Assembly (NCBI GenBank): GCA_017554565.1
Contig: JAFZID010000201.1
Location: 1-44,711 of the forward strand
Direction: 5' to 3'
DNA from: a bacterium
Lineage (GTDB): Bacteria; Auribacterota; UBA3054
DNA: 44,711 nucleotides
A model generated the notes under the pieces. The model made no database searches. It worked only from the letters and a program-made list of their open reading frames with translations, and had not been told where the DNA came from. Position numbers and translations under genes: made by a program. This document shows positions 1,567-24,532 of the stretch, piece after piece (positions within the stretch are counted from its first letter, which is position 1; every line of letters starts with the position of its first letter).

Positions 1567-1642
<76 letters not shown>

Positions 1643-1734: not shown

Positions 1735-1829
1735 TACCCCCTGCCGCGGCCACCCGGCAAAAAGCGTAAACAAGCAGTTAAAAAATATTTATGCCAGCAT
1801 CAGAGAAGGCATTAAACTAGCCAAATGGA

Positions 1830-2378
1830 TCAATGCACTCTCTTGGCTTTCTTAAGAACGAATTTTTCTCCGGAAATATCCTTCTTTACTTCGGTCGGCA
1901 GTTGCGCTTTTATGCCGCTTATTGAGTTGGTAGTCCCCTCTTCCGGATAAGGAAGCTTTACAGCGTCAAAAGAATCGTTAAGCGAGAACTCGGCTTTCGC
2001 TACGCTATTCTCGAAAATGAAACTTCTGCAGAAGCCTCTCGGGAAAAACTTATGGGTGAATTCAGATCGCAGATAATAGGGCGACTCGTCCTTTTCCACC
2101 AAACCTATGCCGAAAGCTTTCCAGTAATTTTCGTCAAAAAGATCTCTGCTCCTTCTCAAAGCATTTTCTACCCTCACGCTTTCGCTGTCGATAAGTTCGG
2201 CTTCAAACACAACAATCCCAACCTCTCCCTCAGGCAACTTGGCTGAGCAAATGTGAAGATCCTGATCCAAATTATAGTCCAATTTGTTCCCGTTGAAAAG
2301 CAGGAGAGAGACGCTTTTGATAGGCCAAGTCCGTATAATGGTGTAAATTTGTAAAGGGGTGAGCCAAAAGCGCCTCAT
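1830..2378 (-). CDS. hypothetical protein (possibly the 3' part of a frameshifted secreted-protein gene)
   Basis: 182-aa ORF of intermediate GC with no motif I recognise. Its frame stays open upstream to 2486 with no further ATG and overlaps the signal-peptide mini-ORF at 2408-2470. Confidence 0.5.
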   Translation of the reverse strand: MRRFWLTPLQIYTIIRTWPIKSVSLLLFNGNKLDYNLDQDLHICSAKLPEGEVGIVVFEAELIDSESVRVENALRRSRDLFDENYWKAFGIGLVEKDESPYYLRSEFTHKFFPRGFCRSFIFENSVAKAEFSLNDSFDAVKLPYPEEGTTNSISGIKAQLPTEVKKDISGEKFVLKKAKRVH

Positions 2379-2407
2379 CGGGTATAATGTTGTCGAAGAA
2401 AAATAAC

Positions 2408-2470
2408 TTATAACCCCGCACAGCGAGTCATCAGAGAAATGAGAAATAAAATACTGATAATGTTGCTCAT
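2408..2470 (-). pseudogene. orphan 20-codon signal-peptide-like mini-ORF, probable 5' end of a frameshifted gene continuing in 1830-2378
   Basis: MSNIISILFLISLMTRCAGL*. It is preceded by GGAG and a full promoter copy, and is homologous at DNA level to the start of the 687-aa gene (MRNIFNMLFLVLLIACCAFA). Confidence 0.45.
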
Positions 2471-2526
2471 ATCGTGGCTCCGATTGTTAGGTGCATTTTC
2501 TCAAAATTTGCAAGGATTGTCAAATC
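2418..2526 (-). repeat. copy 1 of a duplicated promoter + 5'UTR + signal-peptide cassette
   Basis: Hand alignment to 9590-9697 gives about 90 identical positions of 109, including a perfect 19-nt core attttctcaaaatttgcaa. Confidence 0.85.
2495..2523 (-). promoter_or_regulatory. sigma70-type promoter (TTGACA - 17 nt - extended -10 TGAGAAAAT), copy 1
   Basis: Minus strand reads TTGACAatccttgcaaattTTGAGAAAAT, followed by a GGAG RBS and ATG at 2470. Confidence 0.5.
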
Positions 2527-2751
2527 ACGAAGAATGATCAGGTGGCTTCTGCTAATTGATAAATAACTTACAGGCGAATATCGATCATAGTGATTTCTGT
2601 TGGATTGCAAAAGCGCAGATAAGGCTTGCCCAATCCCCTGCTTATGAGCATGACGCTGCCGTCTTTGGAAAGGACTCTCTCCGCCATCATGGCGCCGTAT
2701 TTGGAGGGCAGGATCATCAAACTCCCAAAAACCGAAGTGGAACTTGAGAGC

Positions 2752-4950
2752 TTAATCCAAATCATAAACCTCATAAACCGCAGGTTCCTTCTTGATCCTG
2801 AAAATATGCTTCCTCTCAAACTCCTTCCCGTTTTCTTTATATTTGATCACTGTAGTAAAAACTCCCTCTTCCTGTGGCTCGCCGCAAATTGAAATAAGCG
2901 GCGGAAGCTTGTAGTGATCGTATCTTTTGTCTGGTTCATGCATCGCTATCTTCAAGCCCTTTGGCAGTTCGTTTAGCAGCTCATATTGGAATTCCTTGGT
3001 GAATTCTTTTGGCTTATACCAAAACACATCGTTGGCAAGGCAATAATATGTCTCAATTCCTATGTAGCAGTTATGATAAATTATTCTGCTCTGATCGTAC
3101 CAATCGTTCTCGATGCTGTCTTGTTTCCTTATCTTTTTCTGCGCCGGAGGCTCACCGATATCCTGAATTCTAAATATATGTTTTTGCTCAACAGATGAAC
3201 CGTTGCTGATTATAACTAAAACATTGGTAAAAGTTCCGCTCTCTTTGGGCGTGCCGATGATCGCAAGATCTCCGTCCGCCTTTCTCTCCTCGCTTAATCC
3301 CAACGGTAAAGGAGACTGGAATTTTGTTTCCGTCTTCGAATCGAATGCAAGACCGTCCATTTTATAGAATTCGTCATAATATTCTTTCGTTTTGAATTTG
3401 AAAGGAACATTTACAGTAAGATCATGAACGATCGCACCCTTGTTCAAATGATAAAACGAGCGAGACACTATCTTATTCTGATCGTTGTGCACAACAAAAA
3501 TATACTTCTGCGTCTCTACATTACAAAAACTGTTTCGATTAATGCCTATCCAATAATTGGTAAAACGGCCGATTTCTTCCGGAACACCTTTTAAAAAGCC
3601 GCCATACTTTTTAGGCTCCAATTTTATTCCTTTGGGCAAAGGGAAAGCAAAATAAGCGTTGCTTAGCGAGGCCAGGCTCATATTATTTCCCTCCAAGGCA
3701 ATGTCTTTTGTATATTCTTCGATACAAAAGAAATATTTATATTTTTTTGAATATTGTAGCATGTTTTTGGCAATTGAACGCCCTTTGGGCGGCCTTTCTT
3801 TTGGTTTAGATATCTTTTCTCCAACGGAAAGCCACCCCCAGTCGGAAACAACGGTTTTGTCATCAAAGCTCTGTTTAGTAATTCTCCATATGTAATTACC
3901 CGGACTAACATTACGATTTTTGATAAAGAAAAATTCATCATCTTTATTAATTTTGTTGTATTTTTTTAAAGCTGCCAATTCAGCGCTAATATCATTCAGG
4001 TAAGGAGCAACTAAATTTAAATTAATTGAGTCATTTGAATTTATTTTATAAAGAGTCCCATTCAAATCAATTCTTTCTCCTTTACCATTAGGTTCAGCAA
4101 TATATCTTGACTTGTTTTTAATATTGCTTTTAAAAACAAATTTGACATCTTTCAAAGTTGTAAAACGACTACCGTTTGAAGGAGAAATTATAATAGGTGA
4201 TTGCGGAGCTTTATAATTTTCGTTCTTAATAAAAGGCATAATTTCTCCAACTTTCAAATTTCCAAACATATGATTATGAGGATAATAATAGCCAATATAT
4301 AAAGCAACATCAAATCTGCTTTTCTCAACAAAATTAGGCAGTTCAAGGAAATTAAATATCAAGTAAAATTTAGCTGTTTGTTTGGGTTTCAGCATAAAAA
4401 AATACATGTTTCCCTTGCGATCTAAATCCGTGTTTAAAAATAAAATTTGGGGGCCGCGATTTGAAGCGACAAGAGTATATAAAACATTTGTTTCAGTAAG
4501 ATTTGAAATGAAAAAAGCATTTGATGTTATAAATTTAGGGGTATATTTAACCTCCATAAGCTTCGGTGCCATTGAAACACAATTAGTAATAATTATTGCG
4601 TTGACGCCATTTTTCAATATCTGGTATTCGCTTTGCCTTGAATCATTCAGCGCCTGAAAATAGTTGGGAATTTTTGCGTTTTCAAGCAACATTTTATTAG
4701 TAGCTAAACCTGGCATCAAGCCATATTGTTTAAAAACGTAACCGTTTTCGCCTTTTCCGCTTTGATAATAATCACCCGGCTGCAATATCTGTTCCTGGAG
4801 CGCATACCCTTTTTTCACATCATCATAATTGGGAACATCTATGACAACCGGCAGCTTGTAATCGTTTTGAAAGTCATTTTTAGTTATCTTTGCACCGTAA
4901 GCTGACAAGACCGCTAAAAAATAAATAAATAATAAAACATTACATTTCAT
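2752..4950 (-). CDS. large secreted protein with three putative-Ig (He_PIG-like) modules; paralog of the 4955-6100 product
   Basis: 732 aa. Signal peptide MKCNVLLFIYFLAVLSAYG/AK. Three C-terminal modules of the type LPKGIKL...GVPEEIGRFT, LPLGLSE...GTPKESGTFT and LPKGLKI...GEPQEEGVFT, each closing with an IFRI/IFVV strand. AAGGAG RBS; start lies 4 nt after the upstream stop. Confidence 0.65.
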   Translation of the reverse strand: MKCNVLLFIYFLAVLSAYGAKITKNDFQNDYKLPVVIDVPNYDDVKKGYALQEQILQPGDYYQSGKGENGYVFKQYGLMPGLATNKMLLENAKIPNYFQALNDSRQSEYQILKNGVNAIIITNCVSMAPKLMEVKYTPKFITSNAFFISNLTETNVLYTLVASNRGPQILFLNTDLDRKGNMYFFMLKPKQTAKFYLIFNFLELPNFVEKSRFDVALYIGYYYPHNHMFGNLKVGEIMPFIKNENYKAPQSPIIISPSNGSRFTTLKDVKFVFKSNIKNKSRYIAEPNGKGERIDLNGTLYKINSNDSINLNLVAPYLNDISAELAALKKYNKINKDDEFFFIKNRNVSPGNYIWRITKQSFDDKTVVSDWGWLSVGEKISKPKERPPKGRSIAKNMLQYSKKYKYFFCIEEYTKDIALEGNNMSLASLSNAYFAFPLPKGIKLEPKKYGGFLKGVPEEIGRFTNYWIGINRNSFCNVETQKYIFVVHNDQNKIVSRSFYHLNKGAIVHDLTVNVPFKFKTKEYYDEFYKMDGLAFDSKTETKFQSPLPLGLSEERKADGDLAIIGTPKESGTFTNVLVIISNGSSVEQKHIFRIQDIGEPPAQKKIRKQDSIENDWYDQSRIIYHNCYIGIETYYCLANDVFWYKPKEFTKEFQYELLNELPKGLKIAMHEPDKRYDHYKLPPLISICGEPQEEGVFTTVIKYKENGKEFERKHIFRIKKEPAVYEVYDLD

Positions 4951-4954
4951 ATTA

Positions 4955-6100
4955 TTAATTCTCCTTGTTAGTGTAAGCTCCCACGCCGCTTTTTATTTGA
5001 GACTGATTAGGATCTTTTATATTCATATAAAATCTCTTTATGTCTCTTTTCCCAATTTCGTTTAAAACCTCGACATCAAAAAGGAAAACTCCGGTTTCTC
5101 TTGGAATGCCAAACAAAACTCCTTCTTGAGACAATATCAAACCCGAAGGAAGAATACCTGGAGCGTTCCAATAAACCCTATTTTGCTCGTCATTAACTTT
5201 CAAAATGTTGTAATACTGCTGACCATAATACGAATTTGAACAAACAGGATCGGAAATTATTATCAATGGAATATCCCTAGGATCATAAGGATTGGAATCT
5301 CTGGCAATTTCCACTGTATCGTTGTAACCATCCGAATCAGAATCAACACTATTAGAAATATAAAAGCATCTTTTTTCCGAGCAAATAATGCAATCGATGT
5401 TATCCTCTACGCTTATCATCCACCAATATTTTCCGCACGGGAAAACATCCTCAGACATATTAATGCTATACCCAGACAAACCAGTCACGTTTGTTTTTGA
5501 CAAAATGGTGTCGTTGTCATTTAAAATTATTAAAAACAAACTTGCATTTTCAATATCACAATTAATAAGTTCCCAAGTAAAATTCATGATAGAATTAGGT
5601 GTCAGCAAATCATACATATAAGGGAATATTAATCTTATCAAATTTACCCAAAAATTATTTTTAGGTTTTACATGAAAATAGATTTCACTATATGGCAAAT
5701 TATTAGTATGTCTTGAATATACTTGAGATGAAAAATTAGTGCCATTCTTTAAGGATATTTTAATAAATGTAGTAAGTTCTGGAACAATGTTAATATAATG
5801 AACATCGCTAACGTTAAAATTATTTACCAATCTTAATGCAACGCTTTTGTTTGTTAAAACAGAGTCAATAAATAAACCGGAGGCAAGATATTTAATATTT
5901 CCTTGTTTTTCTGAATTATTATAAGAAAAATTATTCCAAGATATTGGATCTTTATCATCCAAATTATATTGCAATTTATAATCATCAATATTATTGTCCA
6001 AGATCTCCTGGATTTCAATAGCGGCGTTATATTCTATTTCATATAAACCGTAAATTAAATTACAGGTTATTATCACAAAAAATAACAATTTGTTTATCAT
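4955..6100 (-). CDS. secreted protein with a Ca-binding DxDxDG-type motif and one putative-Ig (He_PIG-like) module
   Basis: The ORF-track start at 6109 is a TTG; the first ATG at 6098-6100 gives MINKLLFFVIITCNLIYG... Motifs are DSDSDGYNDTVEIARDSNPYDPRD (thrombospondin-type-3-like) and LPSGLILSQEGVLFGIPRETGVFLFDVEV. Confidence 0.6.
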   Translation of the reverse strand: MINKLLFFVIITCNLIYGLYEIEYNAAIEIQEILDNNIDDYKLQYNLDDKDPISWNNFSYNNSEKQGNIKYLASGLFIDSVLTNKSVALRLVNNFNVSDVHYINIVPELTTFIKISLKNGTNFSSQVYSRHTNNLPYSEIYFHVKPKNNFWVNLIRLIFPYMYDLLTPNSIMNFTWELINCDIENASLFLIILNDNDTILSKTNVTGLSGYSINMSEDVFPCGKYWWMISVEDNIDCIICSEKRCFYISNSVDSDSDGYNDTVEIARDSNPYDPRDIPLIIISDPVCSNSYYGQQYYNILKVNDEQNRVYWNAPGILPSGLILSQEGVLFGIPRETGVFLFDVEVLNEIGKRDIKRFYMNIKDPNQSQIKSGVGAYTNKEN

Positions 6101-6105
6101 AATTA

Positions 6106-7566
6106 TCAATTAATATGACTTTTTAATTTATTGTATATATCTAAATAATCACCCGAAAGTGGAAACACTAGTTCTTTCATTTCGGTATGATTATAGTTAA
6201 CTTTTATGCGTTCGTTTAACCTATGCATTGTCCCGGATAAATTGGCTGATGATATAGAAACAACACCATCACAATCTTTTCCGCCATTTTTATGCCAACT
6301 AATTCCATAATCTTTTCCTCGTAAAATATTATCTGTTCCTATAAAAAAAGTTGAATAGGAATTTAAAAAACTTGTAGGTATTTTGCTCATAAAATCCCAC
6401 ACATCCTTGGTCCCTCTTCTTAAACGGTCAATGTTATCGCTAGAAGTGTTTGAAAAAAATCCAGCGAACGGATAAGAAGCAGCATCGGAGCCGCAAAAAG
6501 GCGTACCAAAAAACACATAATTCCTAATTAGACTTACAATGCTTTCTCTTTCTTCTATTTGACAAACAGTTAATATTCCCCCCATTGAATGAGAAAAAAC
6601 AATTGGTTTTAATTTGTAGTTAATGAAAATATCATAAATATAACCATACAATATATTTTTATCCAAATTGTTTTCCCCTATATATTGGTCATATTTTGTG
6701 TTTTTGGGATTCCAAGGAAAGTCAAAAAAAACTATTGGACGAAGATCATCTGCATGTGGTAAAACTCTTTTTATTTCTAAAAATGCTGTTTCGGGATCTC
6801 CAGGAAATGTCGGATGCGAATTTATTCCGTGAATCAACACAATAGGTTGTACATTTCTAATTGTAAAAACATAATTTTGATCGTCACTATAGTAATCGTT
6901 GGTGCTAGAACAATAGAGTTTTATATAGTATTTTTCGCCAATTATCCAATCATCTTTATAGCATCTTTTAGTAGATCCTTGCAAACAGCTATAAACATTT
7001 GTTGTCCATTCAAAACTTATATTTGAAAAATCCGACATGTTTAAGCCTACTGACATTTTCACCCGTGAATTTGTAGGCATTTCAATGCAATAAACACGAT
7101 TGGTTGGCAGAAATGTATATATGTCAATATCATTATCCATTTGAATCCCTTCAAATGAACGCAAAATACGATTGGTAATCGTTTGGTCGGCTTCAACCGG
7201 CGTACAGTTAGTCACATCCCATTGGCAATAAATATAACCGTTCATTTGGGGCTCATATTGAAATGTATCTGGATCCTGATGAGCTTCCGGTGTTGGCCAA
7301 GTCCCGCTGTAACTAACCAAAAATTTATTTTCAAGATTTTCATTATCATTGTCTGCAATAAAATAAAACATATTTTCATCTTTATTTATAGTTATCCAAT
7401 CGTCATTATCAAGATTTACAGAACTATGAATGGTTACGTCGTCTATCATATGATTTAAATCAAATCTTAAACAACGACGAAGCGTTGAAATTACTTCAGC
7501 ATCGGCACAAGCTGATACAAATGTAAACAACAATACTATTACGATATTTATAATATTTTTTCTCAC
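6106..7566 (-). CDS. secreted lipoprotein: PPC-like N-terminal domain + lipase/esterase-type alpha/beta hydrolase
   Basis: 486 aa with an apparent GTG start. Lipobox FVSAC. The N-terminal half has the D.DIYTF...YYIKLY...YVFTI pattern of pre-peptidase C-terminal domains. The C-terminal half has VLIHGINS (oxyanion-type), the nucleophile elbow FSHSMGG (compare AHSMGG of Bacillus LipA), then CDGVV and NHTE as Asp/His candidates. Confidence 0.65.
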   Translation of the reverse strand: MRKNIINIVIVLLFTFVSACADAEVISTLRRCLRFDLNHMIDDVTIHSSVNLDNDDWITINKDENMFYFIADNDNENLENKFLVSYSGTWPTPEAHQDPDTFQYEPQMNGYIYCQWDVTNCTPVEADQTITNRILRSFEGIQMDNDIDIYTFLPTNRVYCIEMPTNSRVKMSVGLNMSDFSNISFEWTTNVYSCLQGSTKRCYKDDWIIGEKYYIKLYCSSTNDYYSDDQNYVFTIRNVQPIVLIHGINSHPTFPGDPETAFLEIKRVLPHADDLRPIVFFDFPWNPKNTKYDQYIGENNLDKNILYGYIYDIFINYKLKPIVFSHSMGGILTVCQIEERESIVSLIRNYVFFGTPFCGSDAASYPFAGFFSNTSSDNIDRLRRGTKDVWDFMSKIPTSFLNSYSTFFIGTDNILRGKDYGISWHKNGGKDCDGVVSISSANLSGTMHRLNERIKVNYNHTEMKELVFPLSGDYLDIYNKLKSHIN

Positions 7567-7578
7567 GGGGATTGTTCT

Positions 7579-9642
7579 TTATTTTTTCAGTATGGAATAA
7601 TAAAAATACAGATTAGTATTACATGTGTCTGAAATATTGATTGTGGCCTGTCCTGAAACGTCTATATCAACCCAATATCTAAGTAAAGTATCTTGGGCCG
7701 GCGTTATGTTTATAACAGCATTCGAAGATAAAGTTTCGCTAATAATTGCATAATTGTCCCCGGCAGGGATCGCTATCTTGCCACATTGCCCCGGATAATT
7801 GACTTGAAGAAAACTTAATGCTTTTATGCTTTTATTATTTCCGTTTGCAATTAAATTTAAATCGCCATCAAGTGTTGCGATATTTCCTTCTTGATTGTCA
7901 ATAATCAGATCTGTCCGATTTGTTTCCGTACCGATATGCCAATTACCAGAATTTCTAATTATAAAATCTGTTACTTCTAATTTCCCGGTCACAACACCTC
8001 CGGAAGACAAAACAATATTGCTCTTTAGCGTTTCCGTAAAATGAAACAATTGGACGGAATTAGTTGCGATTTTCTCTTCCGTTATCGCCTGCGCCGTTAT
8101 ATGCGATGAAGATATGGCGTTTGATTGTATTTTGTTTCCGGATATTGCGCCGTTGCCTATTTTGGCGGCGGTTACTGCGTTGTCGTTTATTTTAGACGTT
8201 GTGACAGCGCTGTTTGAAAGTTTGCTCTCGGTTATGGAACTGTCTGCTATTTTGCCTGATGTGATGGCGCCGTCTATGATGTGAGCAGTGTTTACAGCGC
8301 CGCTGGAAAGTTTGCTTCCCGTAACCGCGCCGTCTTCTATTTTGCCTGTGGTGATCGCGTTGCTGTTTATCTTGGCGCTTGTTACAGCATTGGTGGACAG
8401 TTTGTTTTCAGTTATTGCTCCGTCCGCTATCTTGGTTGTTCCTATTGCATTGTTTAAGATCTTTTCCTCCGTTACCGCGTTGCTGGCTAGCTTTTCTGCC
8501 GTTACCGAGCCGTTCGCTATGGATGTTGTCCCGAAGACGTGGTTGCTCAAGGAATGGTATATGCTTTGGCAGTTTTCCGCTATCCTGCTGTTTATTTCAG
8601 GGACTGTCGCGACGTCCTGGCCGTCTATTTTTAAGCTGGCGTCGTTCTTTATCTCGATACCGTCTTTGCTGACTATGAGATTAGTGATACTAGTAAAGCT
8701 TATGTCGAAGCAAAGATCATAATTTGGCTGTGCGGTCAGGTCGAATTCTGAGAGAGCGTCTAAGCTGTATCTGCTGCCTGTGCCTGTCCAGAGGCAGTTG
8801 GTTGCCCCTGTGTAAGCGTCACTGCATTTGTTCAGGCAGATCTGGGAGTAGGAGTTCCTTCCTCTCACGCCGAATATGTAAATGGAATTCGTGGAAACCG
8901 GATAATCGCTGAAACTGTACGAATAAATGTTATTGCCTTCATTGATTCTGGAATCAGCGTAAACAAATGTGTTTGTAGTAATGGTTGGGCTGTAAGGGGA
9001 AAGGAATACGCAGTTATAGGGAGGAGCGGATAATTCCGCCTTGATCTTGATCTTTCTGATGTTAGAGATGTTTTTGACCTGGAAAGTCTGGCCTATAAGC
9101 ACTGTGCTGCTTATTGAGGAAGAATTAGCGGACATAGTCGCATTTGTTCCCAGGAGAGCGCCGTCTATGGTGAAGTACCATGTTTCTTCTTCTGCTTTAA
9201 GATGGCCAAGGTATGTACGGACGTAGTTCTGAAGAGACAGGAGTTCTGACGCGAGCTCTTCCAGATCGGATTGGAGAGCGTATGTTTCGCCGGTCCTGTT
9301 TCCTTGGTTTTCGGCGCTGGATATGGATACTAGCTCGGAACTGATCTTGGAATAGTCTTCAATGATCTTATTTAGGTCTTTTTCCCTTACTATGCGCTCC
9401 TCGTGGCTTAGGGTGGAAAGTCCAAGCTGAAGATCGACTATGCCGTCAGCGCAGGCTTCGGCGCTGCTTTTGAGTTTTTCTATGGTGACTTTCAGGCTTT
9501 CAAAATCGTTGGTGGTCATGAAAGCGGAAGAGGTTAGGCCCTGGAGGGTGTCGGCATTGATCAGTCCTTGCGTTTCTTCGCTTGCAAAGGCACAGCAAGC
9601 TATCAGCAAAACGAGAAATAACATATTGAAAATATTGCGCAT
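7579..9642 (-). CDS. tail-fibre-like surface lipoprotein with coiled coil and 16 x 10-aa repeats
   Basis: 687 aa. Signal peptide with lipobox LIAC. NADTLQGLTSSAF motif right after the signal peptide, recalling the A-D-x-L-D-G-x-x-x-S-x-F motif of phage tail fibres. Heptad-like region at aa 45-150. Repeat block at aa 378-537 with consensus x-A-[IV]-T-x-x-K-[IL]-x-x. Confidence 0.6.
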   Translation of the reverse strand: MRNIFNMLFLVLLIACCAFASEETQGLINADTLQGLTSSAFMTTNDFESLKVTIEKLKSSAEACADGIVDLQLGLSTLSHEERIVREKDLNKIIEDYSKISSELVSISSAENQGNRTGETYALQSDLEELASELLSLQNYVRTYLGHLKAEEETWYFTIDGALLGTNATMSANSSSISSTVLIGQTFQVKNISNIRKIKIKAELSAPPYNCVFLSPYSPTITTNTFVYADSRINEGNNIYSYSFSDYPVSTNSIYIFGVRGRNSYSQICLNKCSDAYTGATNCLWTGTGSRYSLDALSEFDLTAQPNYDLCFDISFTSITNLIVSKDGIEIKNDASLKIDGQDVATVPEINSRIAENCQSIYHSLSNHVFGTTSIANGSVTAEKLASNAVTEEKILNNAIGTTKIADGAITENKLSTNAVTSAKINSNAITTGKIEDGAVTGSKLSSGAVNTAHIIDGAITSGKIADSSITESKLSNSAVTTSKINDNAVTAAKIGNGAISGNKIQSNAISSSHITAQAITEEKIATNSVQLFHFTETLKSNIVLSSGGVVTGKLEVTDFIIRNSGNWHIGTETNRTDLIIDNQEGNIATLDGDLNLIANGNNKSIKALSFLQVNYPGQCGKIAIPAGDNYAIISETLSSNAVINITPAQDTLLRYWVDIDVSGQATINISDTCNTNLYFYYSILKK
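8032..8511 (-). repeat. 30-bp periodic coding repeat (16 units) inside the tail-fibre-like gene
   Basis: GSVTAEKLAS NAVTEEKILN NAIGTTKIAD GAITENKLST NAVTSAKINS NAITTGKIED GAVTGSKLSS GAVNTAHIID GAITSGKIAD SSITESKLSN SAVTTSKIND NAVTAAKIGN GAISGNKIQS NAISSSHITA QAITEEKIAT NSVQLFHFTE. Confidence 0.85.
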
Positions 9643-9697
9643 AGCGTAGCTCCGATTGTTGCATGTATTTTCTCAAAATTTGCAATGATTGTCAATC
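9590..9697 (-). repeat. copy 2 of the duplicated promoter + 5'UTR + signal-peptide cassette
   Basis: See copy 1 (2418-2526). This copy is attached to the intact 687-aa gene. Confidence 0.85.
9667..9695 (-). promoter_or_regulatory. sigma70-type promoter (TTGACA - 17 nt - extended -10 TGAGAAAAT), copy 2, probable promoter of the island operon
   Basis: Minus strand reads TTGACAatcattgcaaattTTGAGAAAAT, then a GGAG RBS and ATG at 9642. Confidence 0.5.
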
Positions 9698-9842
9698 TGT
9701 AAATGGAAAAATCAGACCGCAGGATTATGTTTGACATACCGTATTTTTCGAATTTAAAACGTGAAGGCCGCGTTAGGTTGGCATATATTAAGATCCTATT
9801 ATGAATCTAAACGGCCGGCTAGTTTGCGCTCCCACCTTCACT

Positions 9843-9871
9843 TTGATAAAATAAAGCGGTTTATTTTTAAT
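9843..9871 (+). promoter_or_regulatory. candidate sigma70 promoter for the 9900 gene
   Basis: TTGATA - 17 nt - TTTAAT, about 28 nt upstream of the GGAG RBS and ATG at 9900. Confidence 0.3.
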
Positions 9872-9899
9872 CCACAATTACCAACTTTACGGAGCGAAT

Positions 9900-10586
9900 A
9901 TGAAAAACACTTTAGTTTTATCGGCCGCCTTATTTTTCTTCGCGGCCTCTTTGGCCCAGGCCACTCTGACCGTGTATCCCATTGCTGAAAAAGGCAACAC
10001 TTCCTACTCTTTCAGCCTGAAGGGCGAAGACCGCGGCTACGCCATTGAAAACATCGACGCCAGGGAAGGCGAATTCTACATCCGCCTCTGCTACGACTAC
10101 ACGGTCGTAACGAAGGGCTACATAATGAAAGCCGACAAGAAAGGCAAGACCTTCACCGGCGGCAACAGCTCCGAATCCTTCTCCTTCTCCGCGAAGAAAG
10201 GCTCCTGGAAATACAGCGCCAGCAATGTGAACTCTTCTTTCACGCTCGGTTACTTCGGCAGCAACGGCAACCCCTCCTACGACAATCTGTTCGACACCAA
10301 GGGCAAAGCCAGCGCCAAGGGCGTCGTCGATGAGGACGTCGTTCCTACGTTTGAAGAAGGCAAGAAGTATTTCGGTCTCTTCTGCGACACCACAGAGCCC
10401 GCCATGCTGATCCACGCCCAGGCCACCGGCAAAGCCGGCAAGAGCTGGAAATATTCCGATACCCTGGAGGACGGCTCCAAAGTGAAGTTCTCCATGAAGA
10501 TCAGCAAGAAAGGCGACACCGCCGCCGTCTCCATGTCCTTCAAGACTTCCAAGTACGTGCATCCCGCCTTCATCACCGAACCGTAA
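9900..10586 (+). CDS. secreted hypothetical protein
   Basis: 228 aa. Signal peptide MKNTLVLSAALFFFAASLAQA/T. Host-like GC. No recognisable catalytic motif. Confidence 0.7.
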   Translation: MKNTLVLSAALFFFAASLAQATLTVYPIAEKGNTSYSFSLKGEDRGYAIENIDAREGEFYIRLCYDYTVVTKGYIMKADKKGKTFTGGNSSESFSFSAKKGSWKYSASNVNSSFTLGYFGSNGNPSYDNLFDTKGKASAKGVVDEDVVPTFEEGKKYFGLFCDTTEPAMLIHAQATGKAGKSWKYSDTLEDGSKVKFSMKISKKGDTAAVSMSFKTSKYVHPAFITEP

Positions 10587-10607
10587 CAGCGCGCTTAGAG
10601 TGAAATG

Positions 10608-10646
10608 AAAAAGGCCGCGGTTTTTCCGCGGCCTTTTTGTTTTTTT
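10608..10646. terminator. bidirectional intrinsic terminator between convergent genes
   Basis: An A-run, then stem GGCCGCGG, loop ttttt, stem CCGCGGCC, then a T-run (tttttgttttttt). Confidence 0.8.
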
Positions 10647-10664
10647 GGCTTTTTACTTTTTCGC

Positions 10665-11813
10665 TTATTTCTTCACGAACCTGGTGAAGTCCATAGTGAG
10701 AACTTCCTCCAGTTCTTTCTGATCGTCTTCTCTGGTGGCGGTCAAAATGATCGCGAAATCGTCCGGCACCGGCTGGTTGATCTTTCTCACTGAATAGACC
10801 TTCTGGAAATATCTGACCATCGCGTCGTAGTCGAACTGCTCGCTGGGAATATGCGTCCCGCATTTGTCGATGATGATGAAGCTGTAAACGTAGCCCGCGG
10901 CTTTTTTCATTATCTCCGCGAAATCGGGCTTCACTTGCTGCAGATAGACGTCGGGGGGCCAGAAGCCGTAGGCATAGACCGCCACTTCGTTGGTGGAGAT
11001 GCCGGCGAAGCGCAATGGGTTGAACTCGATGGGAATGACGGTGTCCTTGTAGGTCCTCAGTTCCGCATGCAGGGGAAAATCTTTTATGTCGAGCTTCTTC
11101 CCTACTTCCGCAAAATAGGCCGTCAATTTGTCGTACCATTTTTCCATCAGCGAAGGTCCGCAGCAGTAGAGGCGGTCGGAGACGTCGCGGGCGGAGGCGA
11201 AGCGGTGCTCGTAGATGTTAAGTATGACGGGCTCTCCCAGAGTATCGTAATAAACGTCCACCGCCAGTTCGGTGCCGTCCACGAGTTCCTCTAAAAGGAA
11301 GCTGGAGCCCACCACGCCTTCCGTATAGGAAGTGCGCCATTCCTCATAATGGGCCTCGATGTCGGCTTTGGCGTTGGCAAGATCCTGGGGGCCGAAGAGC
11401 GTATAGACGCCCAGGCTGCCGAAGCCCACGTTCAATTTCAGGATAAGAGGATATTTGAGATCTTCGGACTTAAGGGCGAAAAGCTCTTCCTTAGTAAGGA
11501 CCTTGTAATAAAAATCCGGGTAGAGATAAGCCAGCTTGTCCCTCAGGGCAGCCTTGTCTTTCATAAGGTCGGCCTTCTCAACAAGAGGCGAGCCTTTCAG
11601 GTTCTCATAGACCCAGGTGAGGGCGTCCTCGTTGGTGGTGTAAAGCCTCTCCCCCGCCAGGATGCGGGCTTTCGCCTCATCGGAAGGCACGAGATTAAGT
11701 TTGAAACCCGCTCCGCGTTCCCTGGCGTACTCGTTGTCCAAAACGGGCTGCTGAGTCTCCTCCAGATGGCGGAGCAGGTCGTCGGAAATAATTTTTCCAG
11801 CCAAAATGATCAT
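10665..11813 (-). CDS. ATP-grasp domain protein (unknown ligase)
   Basis: The ATG at 11811-11813 (MIILAGKI...) follows AGGAGG; the ORF-track N-terminal extension is unlikely. ATP-grasp motifs are PLILKLNVGFGSLGVY, LLEELVDGTELAVDVYYD and HAELR...IEFNPLRFAG. Confidence 0.7.
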   Translation of the reverse strand: MIILAGKIISDDLLRHLEETQQPVLDNEYARERGAGFKLNLVPSDEAKARILAGERLYTTNEDALTWVYENLKGSPLVEKADLMKDKAALRDKLAYLYPDFYYKVLTKEELFALKSEDLKYPLILKLNVGFGSLGVYTLFGPQDLANAKADIEAHYEEWRTSYTEGVVGSSFLLEELVDGTELAVDVYYDTLGEPVILNIYEHRFASARDVSDRLYCCGPSLMEKWYDKLTAYFAEVGKKLDIKDFPLHAELRTYKDTVIPIEFNPLRFAGISTNEVAVYAYGFWPPDVYLQQVKPDFAEIMKKAAGYVYSFIIIDKCGTHIPSEQFDYDAMVRYFQKVYSVRKINQPVPDDFAIILTATREDDQKELEEVLTMDFTRFVKK

Positions 11814-11882
11814 ATTTGTCCTCCTATAAAAAAGGGAAGGAAGTCGCCTTCCTTCCCATGCGTTAAACATGTTTATAAGGCT

Positions 11883-13826
11883 TTATTTTTCCCTTAGCCA
11901 AACTATGACGCTGCCCGGTCGTCGGTTGTCCCAGGCGTAATACGGCACCGCTTTGAACTTCACGACGCGCTGTCTGGGAGGCTTGATCTGATAAAGGGTC
12001 TCGTCGGGATCGCCGTCCACGTTCTTCAGAGCTTTGCCGGTTATGGCGTACACTCCGCCCAAAAGCCTCTTCTCGAATTTGCCTTTCAGTTTGGCGGTCT
12101 GCTTGATGGAGAGAAGCTCCAGGTTGTTGGTGACGTTGTCAACGGTCTCCAGGCAATAGACCAGGGGCCCGCGCTGCAGGGCCACGCGGCCCTCCAGTTC
12201 CTTGACCTTGGTGGTGGCGTAAACTCTCTGGATGGGCATGTCCATTTCATAGATCAGCTGGTCGCCTTTGCGCCACTTGCGGGTGATGCAGAGATAGCCG
12301 TCCTTTTCTTCCACCGGGCCTTCCTCGTTGAAGTGGCTCTTCACCCTGAGGGAGGTCTGCTGGCACCAGCCGGGAATGCGCACTTTAACGGTGAAGACCG
12401 CGCTCTTATTCAAACTGAAGGTCATGACAGACCTGCCCTTCCAGGGGTATCTGGTCCTCTGGCTGATCCTGACGTCCTGACCGCCGAGATTGACTTTCGT
12501 GGTGCTGCCCACGAAAAGATTGACCCAGAGCGTGTCTTCGCTGGTGGCGTAGATGTAGCCCGGCACGCTGGCGATGAAGCGGGCGATGTTGGGCGGGCAG
12601 CAGGAGCAGCCGTACCAGCCCTGGCGGTGCAGAGCGGCGCCGTCCCACTGGTAGTGCTTGTTCTCGACCTTTTTGTCGGTCTTCTTGTCGGCGTCCGGAT
12701 CGTAGGTGTAGAGCTGGTTCGAATAGAAGAACTTTTCGCCGTCCATCGAGACACCGGAAAGTCCGCTGTTGTACATGATCCTTTCCATGACGTCAGCGTA
12801 CTTGGATTCGCCGGTCAGATAAAGCATGCGCTGACAGAAGAAGATCGCGGCCACGGAAGCGCAGGACTCTGAAGAGATGTTCCCCACCGGGAGCATGTAG
12901 TCTCTCACGAAGCCTTCGTTGCTAAGCGACGGGCCGATGCCGCCGGTTATGTACATCTGGCGTTCGCAGACGCTTTCCCAGAGGCGCTTGCAGGCTTTGG
13001 CCAGCTCTTTGTCGTCGGTTTCCCTGGCGCAGTCGGCCATGCCGGAATACATGTAGAGGGCCCTGACGGAGTGGCCCACGGCGTCCTTCTGTTCCCTGAC
13101 GGGCAGATGCGCCTGGCAGTATTCGTAGGTCTTGGCCCACCATTTCTTGGGATCGTCGCCTCTCTTGACGGCTTCCTCGTCGTAGTAATGGGGCTGCTGT
13201 CCTCTCTGGTTGATGAAGTAGCAGGCCATGTCGAGATAGCGTTTCTCGCCGGTGGCTTCATAAAGCTTCACCAGGGCCAGCTCGATCTCCTGGTGGCCGG
13301 GATAACCGTGAAGCTGGTTTTCGCCGGGACCGAAAGTCTTGCAGATGAGATCCGCGTAGCGGCACATGGCGTTCAGGAAATTGCGGCGTCCGGTGGCGTA
13401 GAAATGGGCCACCGCGGCTTCCATCAGATGGCCGGCGCAATAGAGCTCATGGCAGTCTCTGAGGTTTTTCCAGCGCATCTCGGGCTTGACGTAGATGAAG
13501 TAGTTGTTCATGTAGCCGTCGGGCTGCTGCATCTTGATGATGTCGGAAATGACTTTCTCCAGCGTCTTCTCCAGCTTTTTGTCATAGTTGGTGGCGAGGG
13601 AATAGCAGCCCGCCTCGATCCATTTGGCTACGTCGGAATCCCAAAAGTAATGCCTTTCGCCCTTGTAGTCGGGCTTGAAACAGTCCAAACGTCCGGTCTC
13701 GCGGCACTGTTTTTCGTTGGCCGGGATCGTTTTCAGACGATTGGTCTTCATTTTCGGGGCCCAGAAGATATCCGTGACCTTGACTTTGTTGAAAGGCACG
13801 CCCTTTTGCTTGATGTTCATGCTCAT
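11883..13826 (-). CDS. glycoside hydrolase family 127 (beta-L-arabinofuranosidase-like, DUF1680)
   Basis: 647 aa. GH127-type motifs include YPGHQEIELALVKLYEATG and the Cys cluster GCSCCPPNIARF. Confidence 0.8.
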   Translation of the reverse strand: MSMNIKQKGVPFNKVKVTDIFWAPKMKTNRLKTIPANEKQCRETGRLDCFKPDYKGERHYFWDSDVAKWIEAGCYSLATNYDKKLEKTLEKVISDIIKMQQPDGYMNNYFIYVKPEMRWKNLRDCHELYCAGHLMEAAVAHFYATGRRNFLNAMCRYADLICKTFGPGENQLHGYPGHQEIELALVKLYEATGEKRYLDMACYFINQRGQQPHYYDEEAVKRGDDPKKWWAKTYEYCQAHLPVREQKDAVGHSVRALYMYSGMADCARETDDKELAKACKRLWESVCERQMYITGGIGPSLSNEGFVRDYMLPVGNISSESCASVAAIFFCQRMLYLTGESKYADVMERIMYNSGLSGVSMDGEKFFYSNQLYTYDPDADKKTDKKVENKHYQWDGAALHRQGWYGCSCCPPNIARFIASVPGYIYATSEDTLWVNLFVGSTTKVNLGGQDVRISQRTRYPWKGRSVMTFSLNKSAVFTVKVRIPGWCQQTSLRVKSHFNEEGPVEEKDGYLCITRKWRKGDQLIYEMDMPIQRVYATTKVKELEGRVALQRGPLVYCLETVDNVTNNLELLSIKQTAKLKGKFEKRLLGGVYAITGKALKNVDGDPDETLYQIKPPRQRVVKFKAVPYYAWDNRRPGSVIVWLREK

Positions 13827-18321: not shown

Positions 18322-20976
18322 TTATTCGAAGGGCTTGAAAAAATGGCTCTTGGCGGCGAAGAAGCTCTGGGGGCGCTTTTCTCCGCGGCGCCAGCGGCGC
18401 TGGATGAGGAAGGAGCCCTGTCTTTTGGCAGAGGAGTTTTCCGCTTTTTTTCCGCTCTTGGCTTCCACTTCGTAATAGACGACAAAGCTGTCGCAGCGGT
18501 CTTCGGCGTTTTTCCTGACAAGGTTGTCCGAGACCAGGAAGGGCTGCCGCAGCCATTCGCCTCCGTCTAATTTGATTTTAATAAACCCGCCTTTAAGTCT
18601 GTGCTCTTCCCCTACTCTTCCGAGATGCAATACGCCGCCCTCGGGGAATTTCGCAAATTTCAAACGCGGCTCCCAAAGATCTAATTCCCTGTTGTAAACA
18701 CTGGCATTGTACTTGGGAACGGCCTTTCGGGGGAAGGGCGCATGCCCAGGAAGATAAAGATCGCCTGGCAAAAGGGCTTCGGGCGGCAATTTCAAAAGCC
18801 AAACGCTCTCGTCATAACTTTGATTTAGAAGATAGATCTCTTTACCGTCAGGGGCGACGATCACTTCTTCTCCGCCTTTAAGGCCATGGTTTCTGTCCAG
18901 GGTGACCGTCGCTCCCGTGGAGGCGGTTATCCTGAAAACTTCGCCGTCTTTCGTTATGAGGTCGCAGCCTTTCAAAAGATCCTCCCGGAAGGAAACGCCG
19001 TCTGTGAAAGTCAGCTTGTCGTCGGCGACAGGCTTGACTTTGAATTTTGTTTCGGTACAGTTTTCGGCTTTTTCAGCGAAAGGCAATATGATCTTGTCGC
19101 TGTGCATGCTTTCCATTAGCTCCGCAATATCCTTGCGTTCGATCTTGTTGTCCTCCGCCCTGTGATAGCCGGGCGAATTGGGGATCTCGCTAAAAGAATT
19201 GAAGAGGGCGGTCTTCTGGCCCCATTGGTCGAGGATATAAACTTCGTTCCTGAGGGACTCCAGGGCGAAATCTCCCAGATAGACCGTCTGAGATCTAAGA
19301 TATTTATAAGCATTATCACGATTTCCCACGAAAATCGTGATATGGTTTCCTTCCTGAGATAGAACCGGGAAAGGGGTCAAGCGCTTCCCTTCCTGATCAG
19401 CTGGCAAATAAGCGATAGAATATTCCAAGTGTCTGTTGGAACGCGGATGTTGCCTTCTGGTATCCAGACCAATTGAGAAGGTCCAGCCTCTCCGGTCTCC
19501 GCCGCCGCCTATTTCCCGGATCTTAATCGGCACGGCCCAGGAGGAAGGAATAGCGTAGCCGGTCACATCGTCATTCCCGTTGTCTTCAAACCAGGAAGCG
19601 ACGGTGGCGGTGTCGCCCGGCTGCAGAAGCGGCGTTCCTTTCCATTGGGGCGTTACGGCGTGTTTCTCCCCCTCCGGCGTTTCGCAGAGGATCGCCCAGG
19701 AAGCAAGGTGCAGCGCGTTGGAAGAAACGTTCTCGAAATGATAATAACTTGGGCTGTAGGCTTCCATGCCCATGATGAGCGCTGATCTACCTTTGCTGTT
19801 CACAGCAAAAGGCAGGCTGCCGTATTTTCCGCTGACGACGCGATAATAGCCGCCGGTCAACGCGCTACCTGCGGAAAAATCCGCTTCGGCGCCGCCTTTT
19901 AGAACGCCGAGCTTCACGCGGTAGGAATAGTTTGTCTGCAAACCTTCCAGAAGCCAAAGATCTCTCTTTTTAAGCGTCAGAACACCCCTTTCTTCCCTAT
20001 CGTTGCACCAGCTTCTCGTTACGGTGGAACCCATGGTGACTTCCGGCTTGCCCTCCAGAAGGAAACCGTCTTTCCTGGCTTCCAGGATCTTGGCGGATAC
20101 GTATTTTCCGCCGCAGGAGGAAAGGAAGCTTACGGTCTCGCCGACCCAATCCCAATCCTGCCAGAGGCTGCCTATGCGCTCGCGGCCCGCCTTGTCAGCA
20201 AAATTATCCCACTCCGCCTTTTCCTCTTTGCCGTAAGGTTTTTCTGTTAGGGTGACGAAAAGGTTGGTCTCCCCTCCTGTTTCTTCATAGGCCGTTTTCG
20301 TGACCATGAAGCCCCGGTAAGGCTCCAGGGTTTTCGTGTCCAGGTCGAAAAAAGCGCTCAGACGGCCGATCTTCCAATAGGGAAGAAATCTGTTGTCGCC
20401 TTTTGTCAGGCCGGTAAATCTCAAACTCTCCCCTGTTAGCGAAGCGCTTCTTCGCGTACGGTCCACGTCGATCTCGTCCAAAAGCGCGGCGGTCAGCTCC
20501 GGGGCGAGTTCCTCATCGCCTCTCGCCTTAAGAAACTCTTCGCATGCTCCCTGGATCCGCTCGCGGTTCTCCTCCTCGGCGTCCAGGACCGCCAGATTAG
20601 CCCTTTCTCTTCCCAAAGCGTCCCTGGGGGAAGTCAGAGGAGGGAAGCCGGCGAAGGGATCTTCCGCATCCTTCAGCTGATCCTCGAAACGAAAGCGGTA
20701 AGTGACTTCACCTTCGGCATCGTTCTGCCAGCCGGAGGAAAATGTCTTATAAAGCCCTTCGTTGGAGGTCGCGGCGTCGCAGAGGGCCAAAGCGTGAGCC
20801 AGAGCCGCCTGCTCGCCGTTTTCCAGGAGATTGTCGCAAAGATAATTCCTGCTCTGCCCCAAATGCAGGCTGAGCATGGCGCAGAATACAAGCGCCATGA
20901 GAGAAAAAAAGCCCAGGAGCAGCACCGTCATAACGAGCGCCGCTCCCTTGGCTTTTATTTTCCGGTTTAGGATCAT
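18322..20976 (-). CDS. large membrane-anchored/secreted protein with GspK/minor-pseudopilin-like N-terminal segment
   Basis: 884 aa. The N-terminus KGAALVMTVLLLGFFSLMALVFCAML resembles the hydrophobic start of T2SS GspK-type proteins; the rest is unassigned. GGAG RBS. ATGA overlap with the upstream gene. Confidence 0.55.
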   Translation of the reverse strand: MILNRKIKAKGAALVMTVLLLGFFSLMALVFCAMLSLHLGQSRNYLCDNLLENGEQAALAHALALCDAATSNEGLYKTFSSGWQNDAEGEVTYRFRFEDQLKDAEDPFAGFPPLTSPRDALGRERANLAVLDAEEENRERIQGACEEFLKARGDEELAPELTAALLDEIDVDRTRRSASLTGESLRFTGLTKGDNRFLPYWKIGRLSAFFDLDTKTLEPYRGFMVTKTAYEETGGETNLFVTLTEKPYGKEEKAEWDNFADKAGRERIGSLWQDWDWVGETVSFLSSCGGKYVSAKILEARKDGFLLEGKPEVTMGSTVTRSWCNDREERGVLTLKKRDLWLLEGLQTNYSYRVKLGVLKGGAEADFSAGSALTGGYYRVVSGKYGSLPFAVNSKGRSALIMGMEAYSPSYYHFENVSSNALHLASWAILCETPEGEKHAVTPQWKGTPLLQPGDTATVASWFEDNGNDDVTGYAIPSSWAVPIKIREIGGGGDRRGWTFSIGLDTRRQHPRSNRHLEYSIAYLPADQEGKRLTPFPVLSQEGNHITIFVGNRDNAYKYLRSQTVYLGDFALESLRNEVYILDQWGQKTALFNSFSEIPNSPGYHRAEDNKIERKDIAELMESMHSDKIILPFAEKAENCTETKFKVKPVADDKLTFTDGVSFREDLLKGCDLITKDGEVFRITASTGATVTLDRNHGLKGGEEVIVAPDGKEIYLLNQSYDESVWLLKLPPEALLPGDLYLPGHAPFPRKAVPKYNASVYNRELDLWEPRLKFAKFPEGGVLHLGRVGEEHRLKGGFIKIKLDGGEWLRQPFLVSDNLVRKNAEDRCDSFVVYYEVEAKSGKKAENSSAKRQGSFLIQRRWRRGEKRPQSFFAAKSHFFKPFE

Positions 20977-22211: not shown

Positions 22212-22233
22212 AGTTTTTGGGGTTGTTGGTTAT

Positions 22234-22264
22234 ATCGTGTTACATTTTATCTAAATCGTGTTAC
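22234..22264. promoter_or_regulatory. direct repeat ATCGTGTTAC x2, 21 bp start to start, in a divergent intergenic region
   Basis: Perfect 10-mers at 22234-22243 and 22255-22264, between the divergently transcribed 412-aa and 584-aa genes. Confidence 0.4.
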
Positions 22265-22323
22265 TCAATCAAGGACGCAACTTTTTCGCTTTTTTGTCCG
22301 TTAGATATTAAGGAGGTACACAT

Positions 22324-24078: not shown

Positions 24079-24111
24079 GGTAGAATTATAACTACCAAAT
24101 CGAGGAAAACC

Positions 24112-24462
24112 ATGCAGCTGACATTACTGAAAGGCAAAATACACCGCGCCAGGGTGACGGAATGCGATCTCCACTACGCCGGCTCCATCGGCATAGATGA
24201 AGATCTCTTGTCCGCCGCCAACATTCTCCCCTACGAGAGAGTCTCCGTAGCCAACGTCACCAACGGATCGCGCTTCGACACCTACGTTCTGCCCGCCCCC
24301 AAGGGCAGCGGGACCATCGCAATTTACGGTGCGGCCGCTCACCTGGCGAAAATGAACGACATCATCATTATTTTCGCCTGGGCCAATATGGACGAAAAGG
24401 AAGCCCAGAGCTTCAAGCCTTCTATCTGCCTGGTGGACGAGAACAACAAGATCAAGTTCTAA
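24112..24462 (+). CDS. panD: aspartate 1-decarboxylase
   Basis: 116 aa. LLKGKIHRARVTECDLHYAGSIGID contains the Gly-Ser self-cleavage site; colinear with E. coli PanD. Confidence 0.92.
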   Translation: MQLTLLKGKIHRARVTECDLHYAGSIGIDEDLLSAANILPYERVSVANVTNGSRFDTYVLPAPKGSGTIAIYGAAAHLAKMNDIIIIFAWANMDEKEAQSFKPSICLVDENNKIKF

Positions 24463-24480
24463 AAAAGTTTTCTCGCAGCA

Positions 24481-24516
24481 AAAAAAGGGCGGGCTTAATG
24501 CCCGCCCTTTTTGTTT
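24481..24516. terminator. bidirectional intrinsic terminator
   Basis: An A-run, then GGGCGGGC, loop ttaat, GCCCGCCC, then a T-run. It lies between convergent panD and the 874-aa gene. Confidence 0.8.
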
Positions 24517-24532
24517 TGGCTTTGCCGGATCG

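Follow-up and report, generated by a model that had tools for sequence, protein, structure and literature searches.

Low-GC, hypervariable clusters of surface-antigen genes that are exchanged by recombination in their flanks are familiar from bacteria, e.g. the enterobacterial O-antigen rfb clusters and the capsule loci. The contig JAFZID010000201.1 of assembly GCA_017554565.1 (GTDB lineage Bacteria; Auribacterota; UBA3054), analysed as a stretch of 44,711 nt that is called the window here, contains an AT-rich island (positions 1746-9823) with a cassette of four minus-strand genes, P1 to P4, whose predicted products are secreted. The island is a copy of an uncharacterised cassette family outside any named system. 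With the O-antigen and capsule loci it shares a lasting GC deficit, deep allelic divergence between conserved flanks, mosaic recombination and a lack of mobility genes; unlike them, the cassette encodes secreted proteins rather than glycan synthesis, occupies many loci, can be absent, and has a GC-normal paralogue in the same genome.

Several other described systems resemble the cassette in part. Integrative islands associated with tRNA genes have the deviant composition, the tRNA-side position and the presence or absence among relatives that are seen here, but the cassette has neither an integrase nor a duplicated tRNA 3' end, lies upstream of the tRNA promoter, and has sister copies that are not at tRNA genes. 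Phage tail fibres (PHROG families 28766 and 892, with lambda-J-type annotations) resemble P1 in its repeat region, its combination of coiled coil and beta-rich architecture and its variable repeat number; they differ from it in that P1 has a Sec signal peptide, belongs to a chromosomal operon otherwise free of phage genes, and conserves its C-terminus instead of its N-terminus. Small secreted alpha/beta-hydrolases, such as Bacillus LipA, the LCAT/PGAP1-like enzymes, Legionella PlaB and the feruloyl esterases, share with P2 an HG motif, the HSMGG elbow, the Asp and His residues and the canonical fold, but P2 carries a unique N-terminal region of ~230 amino acids (aa) that includes a beta-sandwich like the ColG collagen-binding domain and PPC domains, and no curated model passes its cut-off. 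Bacterial surface proteins with TSP3 repeats and He_PIG domains are matched by TSP3_bac and He_PIG in the P3 family and by He_PIG-like modules in P4, although the P3 and P4 of the window are themselves under the Pfam thresholds and their N-terminal domains match nothing. Unlike the Tle-type effectors of type VI secretion systems (T6SS) and toxin-immunity pairs, the cassettes and the flanks of every locus are devoid of an immunity gene and of a delivery system (T6SS or contact-dependent inhibition, CDI), and all four genes encode large secreted modular proteins. Unlike a cellulosome, the system has no cohesin, dockerin or CAZy family, only TSP3 motifs and a sub-threshold Melibiase match in a variant cassette.

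A family of four-gene cassettes

The window cassette consists of P1 (7579-9642), P2 (6106-7566), P3 (4955-6109, with an alternative ATG at 6100) and P4 (2752-4950), separated by gaps of 12, -4/+5 and 4 nt. The order P1-P2-P3-P4, with homology confirmed position by position, is found at no fewer than seven unrelated chromosomal loci: the window locus, BrkB/Mfd (L007-9), psd/AP-endonuclease (L025), MutL (L027), znuABC-Fic/NUDIX (L013 and L028), and two sites in one genome (L014 and L015). Cassette proteins at different loci are 32-45% identical. A sequence-only reading of the window, which had singled out the island, allowed that the four families might prove unlinked elsewhere; they are linked in the same order at these loci. 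Its statement that the combination belongs to no named system also stands, in that P1 to P4 and a downstream open reading frame, ORF5, have no significant Pfam or NCBIfam match and PADLOC yields only a partial, repeat-level match on P1. In the L015 cassette (9821-12394) P2 and P3 are fused in one reading frame of 857 aa, which hints at a joint action of the hydrolase and the TSP3/Ig protein.

All 12 loci examined lie amid housekeeping genes of GC-rich chromosomes, and an AT-rich native context was not seen among ~100 protein clusters. No virion, baseplate or lysis gene stands beside the cassette in the window island or in the 12 related loci. A deeper clade occupies one fixed locus (L010, L016-L023) and comprises P1', P2' (26-29% identical to P2) and a longer P3'. 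The cassette of this clade in L010 (7888-8169 and 13218-17146) is preceded by a 93-aa Gly/Ser-rich secreted protein and followed by a conserved protein of 453-460 aa without a signal peptide, an HTH_3 regulator and an opposite-strand TSP3 protein. A larger variant of 11-15 kb and GC 0.32-0.45 (L039-L041; L039:6458-20893, L041:10001-20949) contains P1, a hydrolase of 685-718 aa, two TSP3 proteins and a protein of 726-732 aa whose match to Melibiase, at 22-26 bits, falls slightly short of the cut-off; in L039 a pair of P4-like and P3-like genes lies upstream of P1. The BrkB/Mfd cassette has, in place of the fourth gene, one for a 471-aa protein (L007:12648-14063) that weakly resembles a caspase (Peptidase_C14, 19.5 bits; cut-off 21.4).

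The cassette-bearing genomes are metagenome-assembled genomes (MAGs) named "Bacterium isolate RGIG..." from yak, buffalo, sheep and goat, together with "bacterium UBP3_UBA3054", and the hosts are uncultured ruminant-gut bacteria, probably of the candidate phylum UBP3. Members of UBP3 have been noted in the ruminant forestomach and are rich in carbohydrate-active enzymes (CAZymes) (PMC8831627, PMC9765126). In RGIG8200 a fixed-locus cassette and an empty tRNA-Thr site occur on a single contig whose flanks are 83-88% identical to those of the window. The bacterium from which the window comes therefore most likely belongs to this uncultured UBP3 lineage as well.

Composition and borders of the island

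The GC content is 0.364 across 2752-9642 and 0.374 across the whole island, against 0.566 for the remaining window (10-44.7 kb). Windows of 1 kb beyond the island have a mean GC of 0.565 (sd 0.024, minimum 0.502), and those inside it a mean of 0.353 (-8.9 sd) and a maximum of 0.468 (-4.1 sd). Host genes have a GC at third codon positions (GC3) of 0.63-0.80, P1 one of 0.49 and P2-P4 one of 0.24-0.36. FYMINK residues make up 0.37-0.42 of P2-P4 and 0.31 of P1; most host genes have 0.21-0.30, and the flanking 228-aa gene has 0.34. The AT bias is present at all codon positions and in protein composition. The compositional collapse described in the sequence-only reading is borne out, but its figures of 13-15 G+C per 60-nt line, with 35-42 in the flanks, were overstated: over 2752-7566 the mean is 19.9 (range 9-35, with 13-15 in just 15% of lines), and the flank mean is 33.9.

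Relative to the nearest empty site (L031, with flanks 92-98% identical), the island is an 8.08-kb insertion. Homology to L031 ends at window position 9824 and restarts at 1745, and ~170 nt of unrelated spacer stand in place of the island. A search of public assemblies with the exact L33 protein gave ten distinct contexts, eight of which have the empty site, with the 228-aa gene (window 9900-10586) directly adjoining tRNA-Thr/rpmG; in the other two (L034 and L037), and in L006 as well, the cassette lies between them. Four relatives (L029:9390-9714, L030, L036 and L038) have in common an empty-site spacer of ~330 nt that contains long inverted repeats and separates the 228-aa gene from tRNA-Thr, and the spacers of L031 (9545-9716) and L032 are unrelated to it, making this spacer hypervariable. 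The insertion site is a hot spot even without the cassette. Both island junctions are reproduced by independent assemblies from different samples (L006, L034 and L037; the junctions are also present in L001), and a mis-join is excluded by this recurrence.

The right border lies ~100 nt upstream of the 5' end of tRNA-Thr (GGU; 1567-1642, minus strand), just ahead of its promoter (TTGATT-17-TACAAT, 1734-1706), which is abutted by a terminator-like hairpin at the island's right edge (1736-1765, minus strand). Beyond the island tRNA-Thr, rpmG and tRNA-Trp follow in succession, and an Rfam scan of the window found the two tRNAs only. The link with tRNA-Thr to which attention had been drawn is incidental, as the island stops short of the gene and other copies are at non-tRNA loci. 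No target duplication or tRNA-end repeat was found at the island borders, and no integrase, transposase or other recombinase among the island ORFs (Pfam, NCBIfam, PHROGs), as had been noted from the sequence; the accompanying statement that phage structural genes are absent holds for the rest of the island, with the qualification that P1 matches phage tail-fibre PHROGs. Apart from a 106-nt promoter duplication described below, no terminal repeats, conserved 3' ends, DNA-level tandem repeats or phase-variation tracts were found in the island, nor were paralogues of the cassette proteins found elsewhere in the window.

Recombination and the persistence of AT-richness

The cassettes are recombinational mosaics, one nearly identical copy occupies another locus, and their AT-richness persists. 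Between the window and L006, which has the cassette at the same locus, the island edges are 100% identical and the interior (~8200-4000) is 60-90% identical; P3 has a dS of 1.6, i.e. its synonymous sites are saturated, and P1 a dS of 0.10. With L013, at the znuABC-Fic locus, the window shares a segment that runs from 9709, 14 nt ahead of the -35 element, to the P4 stop at 2753, within which P3 is 99.6% and P1 83.5% identical. In L028, also at the znuABC-Fic locus, the flanks are 80-83% identical and the cassette P2 only 34% identical. Between the window and L037 the cassette is 100% identical, and flank identity falls to 77-98% within a few kb. We infer that inter-locus gene conversion accounts for the occurrence of the promoter-to-stop unit at two loci; several cassettes have promoter, leader and signal-peptide sequences in common, which could act as a handle for recombination at the 5' end.

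All short-clade copies have a GC of 0.29-0.42 and a P2 GC3 of 0.23-0.34, in genomes of GC 0.53-0.60; a GC3 of 0.23-0.34 holds for every copy of two deep clades, and the fixed-locus clade has a host-like GC3 of 0.61-0.79; AT-rich and GC-normal cassettes occur together in single genomes (RGIG9765, RGIG10100). A neighbour-joining tree of P2 places the AT-rich copies in deep clades, which have longer branches than the GC-normal clade. Polarised substitutions in P2 and P4 (window and L013, with L006 as outgroup) number 78 from GC to AT against 67 from AT to GC, which fits a 1:1 ratio (p = 0.41) and rejects drift towards host GC (71% of changes expected from AT to GC; p = 5e-10); stationarity also holds in the flanking genes, at the GC that they have. 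The test is by three-taxon parsimony, and the C-terminal segment of P1, where the assumed tree is violated (d(A,B) > d(A,O)), was dropped from it. All four genes are under purifying selection (dN/dS 0.14-0.17 for P1, 0.23-0.24 for P2, 0.14 for P3 and 0.13-0.20 for P4, i.e. 0.13-0.24 overall), against 0.04-0.09 for the enzyme and nusG genes of the flanks. The proposal that the island is a horizontally acquired toolkit survives in part: the cassette is accessory, horizontally exchanged and placed behind a single promoter, but the evidence does not establish that it is foreign. The family is endemic to this lineage, a GC-normal clade of paralogues resides in the same genomes, and no AT-rich donor was found.

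The fibre protein P1

P1 (687 aa, minus strand) has a signal peptide, a coiled coil, a beta-sandwich domain, ~15 eleven-residue repeats and a C-terminal domain of ~150 aa. The guess that it is a tail-fibre-like repeat protein gains support from its matches over aa 340-560 to tail-fibre PHROGs (phrog_28766, E = 4e-38; phrog_892, E = 1e-34); it is also 30-42% identical to phage fibre and host-specificity proteins in 116 phage records (tblastn). This phage similarity is limited to the 11-residue repeat region (aa 300-600). Among 14 aligned homologues (alignments A4 and A6) the repeat number varies from 0 to ~25, and the beta-sandwich and the C-terminal domain are conserved. The latter has the signature GGxVTGxL...NGNWxIGT...QCG...TPxQ...YWV and is represented by 73 clusters among 1.84 billion representative proteins, always at the C-terminus and with no Pfam assignment.

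The AlphaFold2 (AF2) model of P1 has a pLDDT of 56 and is confident solely at aa 170-320 and 620-687. A Foldseek search against the PDB gave nothing at E <= 0.001 (weak matches were to CBM32, the phi812 baseplate and diphtheria toxin), and phage-fibre matches in BFVD at TM 0.1-0.16 are consistent with the assignment, not probative. A sequence/profile search of the PDB with P1 returned P22 gp26 at E = 0.006, which was taken as coiled-coil noise. A PADLOC match of aa 328-454 to PD-Lambda-5_A (E = 5e-10) was rejected as a match at the level of the repeats, probably an artefact of these or of the profile, with no second component and no methyltransferase, and because the PD-lambda-5 system is of a kind that resembles restriction-modification plus abortive infection (PMC9519451). 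The P1 gene is heterogeneous, with a GC of 0.44-0.52 in its 5' two-thirds and 0.33-0.39 in its 3' third, and its identity to L013 shifts from 84% to 94% near 8360-8400, which suggests an intragenic recombination breakpoint there.

The hydrolase P2

P2 (486 aa, minus strand) consists of a signal peptide, a collagen-binding/PPC-like beta-sandwich and an alpha/beta hydrolase domain with a predicted Ser327-Asp433-His460 triad and an HG oxyanion motif. H246, G247, H326, S327, G329, G330, D433 and H460 are invariant in 20 sequences of the family, and H326-S327-M-G329-G330 (HSMGG) forms the nucleophile elbow; in the AF2 model (pLDDT 81.5) S327 lies between a strand (322-326) and a helix (328-339). 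By residue conservation and the model, P2 has the predicted catalytic residues of a serine hydrolase intact. Foldseek matches the N-terminal part to the ColG collagen-binding domain (PPC-type, TMt 0.73) and the C-terminal part to PlaB, carboxyl and feruloyl esterases and monoacylglycerol lipases (MGL), with LCAT further down and many hydrolases at probability 1.00. The description of P2 as a PPC domain plus a lipase-type hydrolase is thus upheld for both domains, but its lipid specificity is unproven, as the fold matches esterases, lipases and phospholipases equally. Named lipase and esterase families of Pfam and NCBIfam give no match above threshold (LCAT, 13.5 bits against a cut-off of 21; other family members are sub-threshold for LCAT, PGAP1 and Abhydrolase_6), and a sequence/profile search of the PDB gave sub-threshold matches to LipA.

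The P2 family comprises ~50 clusters, all from metagenomes or unnamed MAGs, and no relative was found in the viral contigs of IMG/VR. A lake-water MAG from Lac Pavin contains a distant P2 homologue (L024:44-1381, 26% identity) in a region of GC 0.47-0.49 with flanks of ~0.60; the family accordingly extends beyond ruminant guts.

The calcium/Ig-module proteins P3 and P4

P3 (384 aa, minus strand) has a signal peptide, an N-terminal domain, an FN3-like domain, one TSP3 calcium-binding motif (DSDSDGYND..E) and an Ig domain of the He_PIG type. In alignment A5 D256, D258, D260, D264 and E267 are invariant, and of 14 family members TSP3_bac is matched in ten and He_PIG in three; a single-sequence search found six close relatives, the distant ones being drawn from the loci. 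P4 (732 aa, minus strand) has a signal peptide, an N-terminal domain, an FN3-like domain (PGNYxWR) and three He_PIG-like modules (LPxGL..GxPxxxGxFTN..KHIF), and shares 24-38% identity with its counterparts in fourth position in six other cassettes (alignment A7; L014, L015, L025, L027 and L028 among them). The earlier view of P3 and P4 as two paralogous Ig-module proteins is right as to the modules, which are of the He_PIG type in both; the proteins share these modules, yet are not close paralogues.

Expression signals and the tail of the island

As had been proposed, the four tightly spaced ORFs lie behind one near-consensus promoter and encode N-termini that all resemble Sec signal peptides, as judged by eye. 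The promoter-like site (9667-9695, minus strand) is TTGACA-17-GAAAAT with an upstream TG (extended -10) and has 10 of 12 consensus matches. A GGAG Shine-Dalgarno (SD) sequence precedes P1 and P4; the starts without an SD that had been noted are those of P2 (GTG) and P3 (TTG/ATG). Since these starts also abut or overlap the preceding stop, P2 and P3 are probably translationally coupled. The lipobox-like Cys that had been assigned to two of the proteins is present in the P1 and P2 of the window, but most homologues lack it there (alignments A1 and A4), so that cleavage by signal peptidase I is more likely for both.

The promoter is duplicated. A 106-nt repeat at 9590-9695 (promoter, GGAG leader, ATG and the first 17 codons of P1) has an 83% identical copy at 2418-2523, also on the minus strand, with the promoter TTGACA-17-GAAAAT at 2523-2495, GGAG and ATG. 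This second copy opens a truncated frame of 20 codons before a stop (2408-2470, minus strand; translation MSNIISILFLISLMTRCAGL), a remnant of a second P1-type gene start, and ORF5 (1830-2378, minus strand; 182 aa, without a signal peptide) follows out of frame with it, in agreement with the earlier view of a second promoter copy and a probably frameshifted fifth gene. ORF5 is probably a decayed remnant; it has no Pfam, NCBIfam, PHROG or PADLOC match, and neither it nor the tail of the island (1746-2750) has relatives outside the window locus. The remnant promoter suggests an earlier tandem or replaced cassette. The ~200 nt (2556-2751) that separate the P4 stop from the second promoter copy have a GC of ~0.49 and include a short ORF (2568-2819) that overlaps the end of P4; these too have no relatives outside the locus. 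The GC-normal part of the window contains other large genes (18322-27157 and 30501-33378), for proteins of 884, 412 and 584 aa without a Pfam match and of 874 aa with BACON_2, as well as a subtilase (S8) and a TMEM43-family protein, all of them unrelated to the cassette proteins.

Proposed explanation and alternatives

We regard it as an even chance that the cassettes form a lineage-specific, fibre-led family of Sec-exported proteins, in which a fibre carries a hydrolase, that is spread by recombination and gene conversion and is stably AT-rich. Judging from the spacing of the genes, one promoter of the sigma-70 type would transcribe P1 to P4. P1 would be a tail-fibre-like, probably trimeric fibre whose length is set by the number of 11-residue repeats and whose C-terminal domain is the family signature; P2 is predicted to be an active serine hydrolase of the esterase/lipase class behind a collagen-binding/PPC-like beta-sandwich, and P3 and P4 would be calcium-binding/Ig-module proteins. 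The four may come together outside the cytoplasmic membrane in a surface fibre with the hydrolase mounted on it. Such a fibre would attach to an external substrate or cell, whose ester bonds would be cut by the hydrolase. The mosaic patterns point to spread and diversification by homologous recombination and gene conversion among alleles and paralogous copies at several slots, not by site-specific integration, and AT-richness would be a stable property of the cassette gene pool rather than the fading trace of a single recent import.

A number of points weigh against this explanation. The structural model of P1 is poor and the PDB structure search with it non-significant, and the matches of P2 to lipase families are under the curated cut-offs. 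The assembly of the four proteins is suggested only by conserved linkage and one fusion. The polarity test is by parsimony on three sequences, and the polarised differences may have come from recombination with other AT-rich alleles, not from mutation in place. Finally, the arrival of the promoter-to-stop unit at a new locus is without explanation. A bolder version of the same explanation, which we consider possible though with the balance tilted against it, is that the cassette encodes a UBP3 surface organelle, a Sec-exported fibre derived from a phage tail fibre with an esterase and calcium/Ig partners, kept AT-rich by a locus-specific force (selection for silencing or switching, or biased mutation or repair), with its genes shuffled among several chromosomal slots by gene conversion to give each strain a changeable surface repertoire.

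The classical alternative is a foreign island, i.e. repeated recent independent imports from an unsampled AT-rich donor pool (bacterium, plasmid or phage) whose low GC has not been ameliorated. The sharp GC boundaries, the presence or absence of the cassette among close relatives, an amino acid composition shifted as in AT-rich genomes, the 100% identical cassette in strains with differing flanks and the phage-like repeats of P1 all speak for it; nevertheless we judge it unlikely, given that 12 of 12 loci are in GC-rich chromosomes with no AT-rich native context, that P2 has no relative in IMG/VR, that a GC-normal sister clade resides in the same genomes, that substitutions are stationary and not ameliorating, and that integration machinery is lacking. 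The phage-like repeats and the matches of P1 to tail-fibre PHROGs and host-specificity proteins might also mark a decayed prophage or tailocin that has kept only its tail-fibre end. The signal peptides on all four proteins, the conserved gene order and purifying selection, the lack of any other phage gene in 12 loci and again the blank result for P2 in viral contigs largely refute this, leaving it very improbable. An assembly chimera that joins the DNA of an AT-rich organism to a GC-rich chromosome is hardly credible: several metagenome contigs do break near the island ends, but both junctions recur in the independent assemblies cited above.

The remaining alternatives concern function. The best full-domain structural matches of P2 include the Legionella phospholipase PlaB, with weak matches to LCAT, PGAP1 and LipA, P1 resembles a receptor-binding fibre, and alleles turn over fast, as might be expected of an attack module in which P2, as a lipase or phospholipase that damages membranes, is delivered to a competitor or prey cell bound by the fibre, and which diversifies in an arms race. 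This we hold to be quite unlikely, and the label "attack" given in the sequence-only reading is unproven: neither the cassettes nor their surroundings contain a small immunity-like gene, a secretion-system gene or a lysis gene, feruloyl/cinnamoyl and carboxyl esterases are just as good a match for P2, dN/dS is far under 1, and variant cassettes gain glycosidase-like or peptidase-like genes, not toxins. The esterase matches, which include rumen and lactobacillus feruloyl/cinnamoyl enzymes, lead instead to a surface display of enzymes for the breakdown of plant polymers, analogous to a cellulosome, with P1 as a scaffold or lectin-like fibre, P2 as an esterase of the feruloyl/acetyl type and calcium-dependent assembly through the TSP3/Ig proteins. 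A weak CBM32-like signal on the P1 beta-sandwich, the Melibiase-like gene of the larger variant, the CAZyme-rich nature of UBP3 genomes (PMC9765126) and the GH127, GH36 and sulfatase-maturase genes in the flanks agree with such a display. It is improbable all the same, in that neither the CBM nor the Melibiase signal reaches significance, that cohesin, dockerin and CAZy families give nothing above threshold, and that nutrient-acquisition loci are not normally hypervariable, multi-copy and AT-rich.

Significance

The analysis defines a secreted module of four genes, conserved and under selection, in a phylum without a cultured member, and the C-terminus of P1 and the N-termini of P3 and P4 are absent from current family libraries. 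If P1 is indeed a domesticated tail fibre on the cell surface, it would add to the few known phage receptor-binding proteins that have been recruited by cells. The movement of the cassette between loci takes place without recognisable mobility genes. The most interesting aspect is evolutionary: a multi-locus, recombining and stably AT-rich family persists beside a GC-normal paralogue in GC-rich genomes. The AT-rich cassettes and the GC-normal paralogue in the same genomes are a natural case of long-lived compositional deviation, and bear on the old question whether variable surface loci owe their low GC to a foreign origin or to local maintenance.

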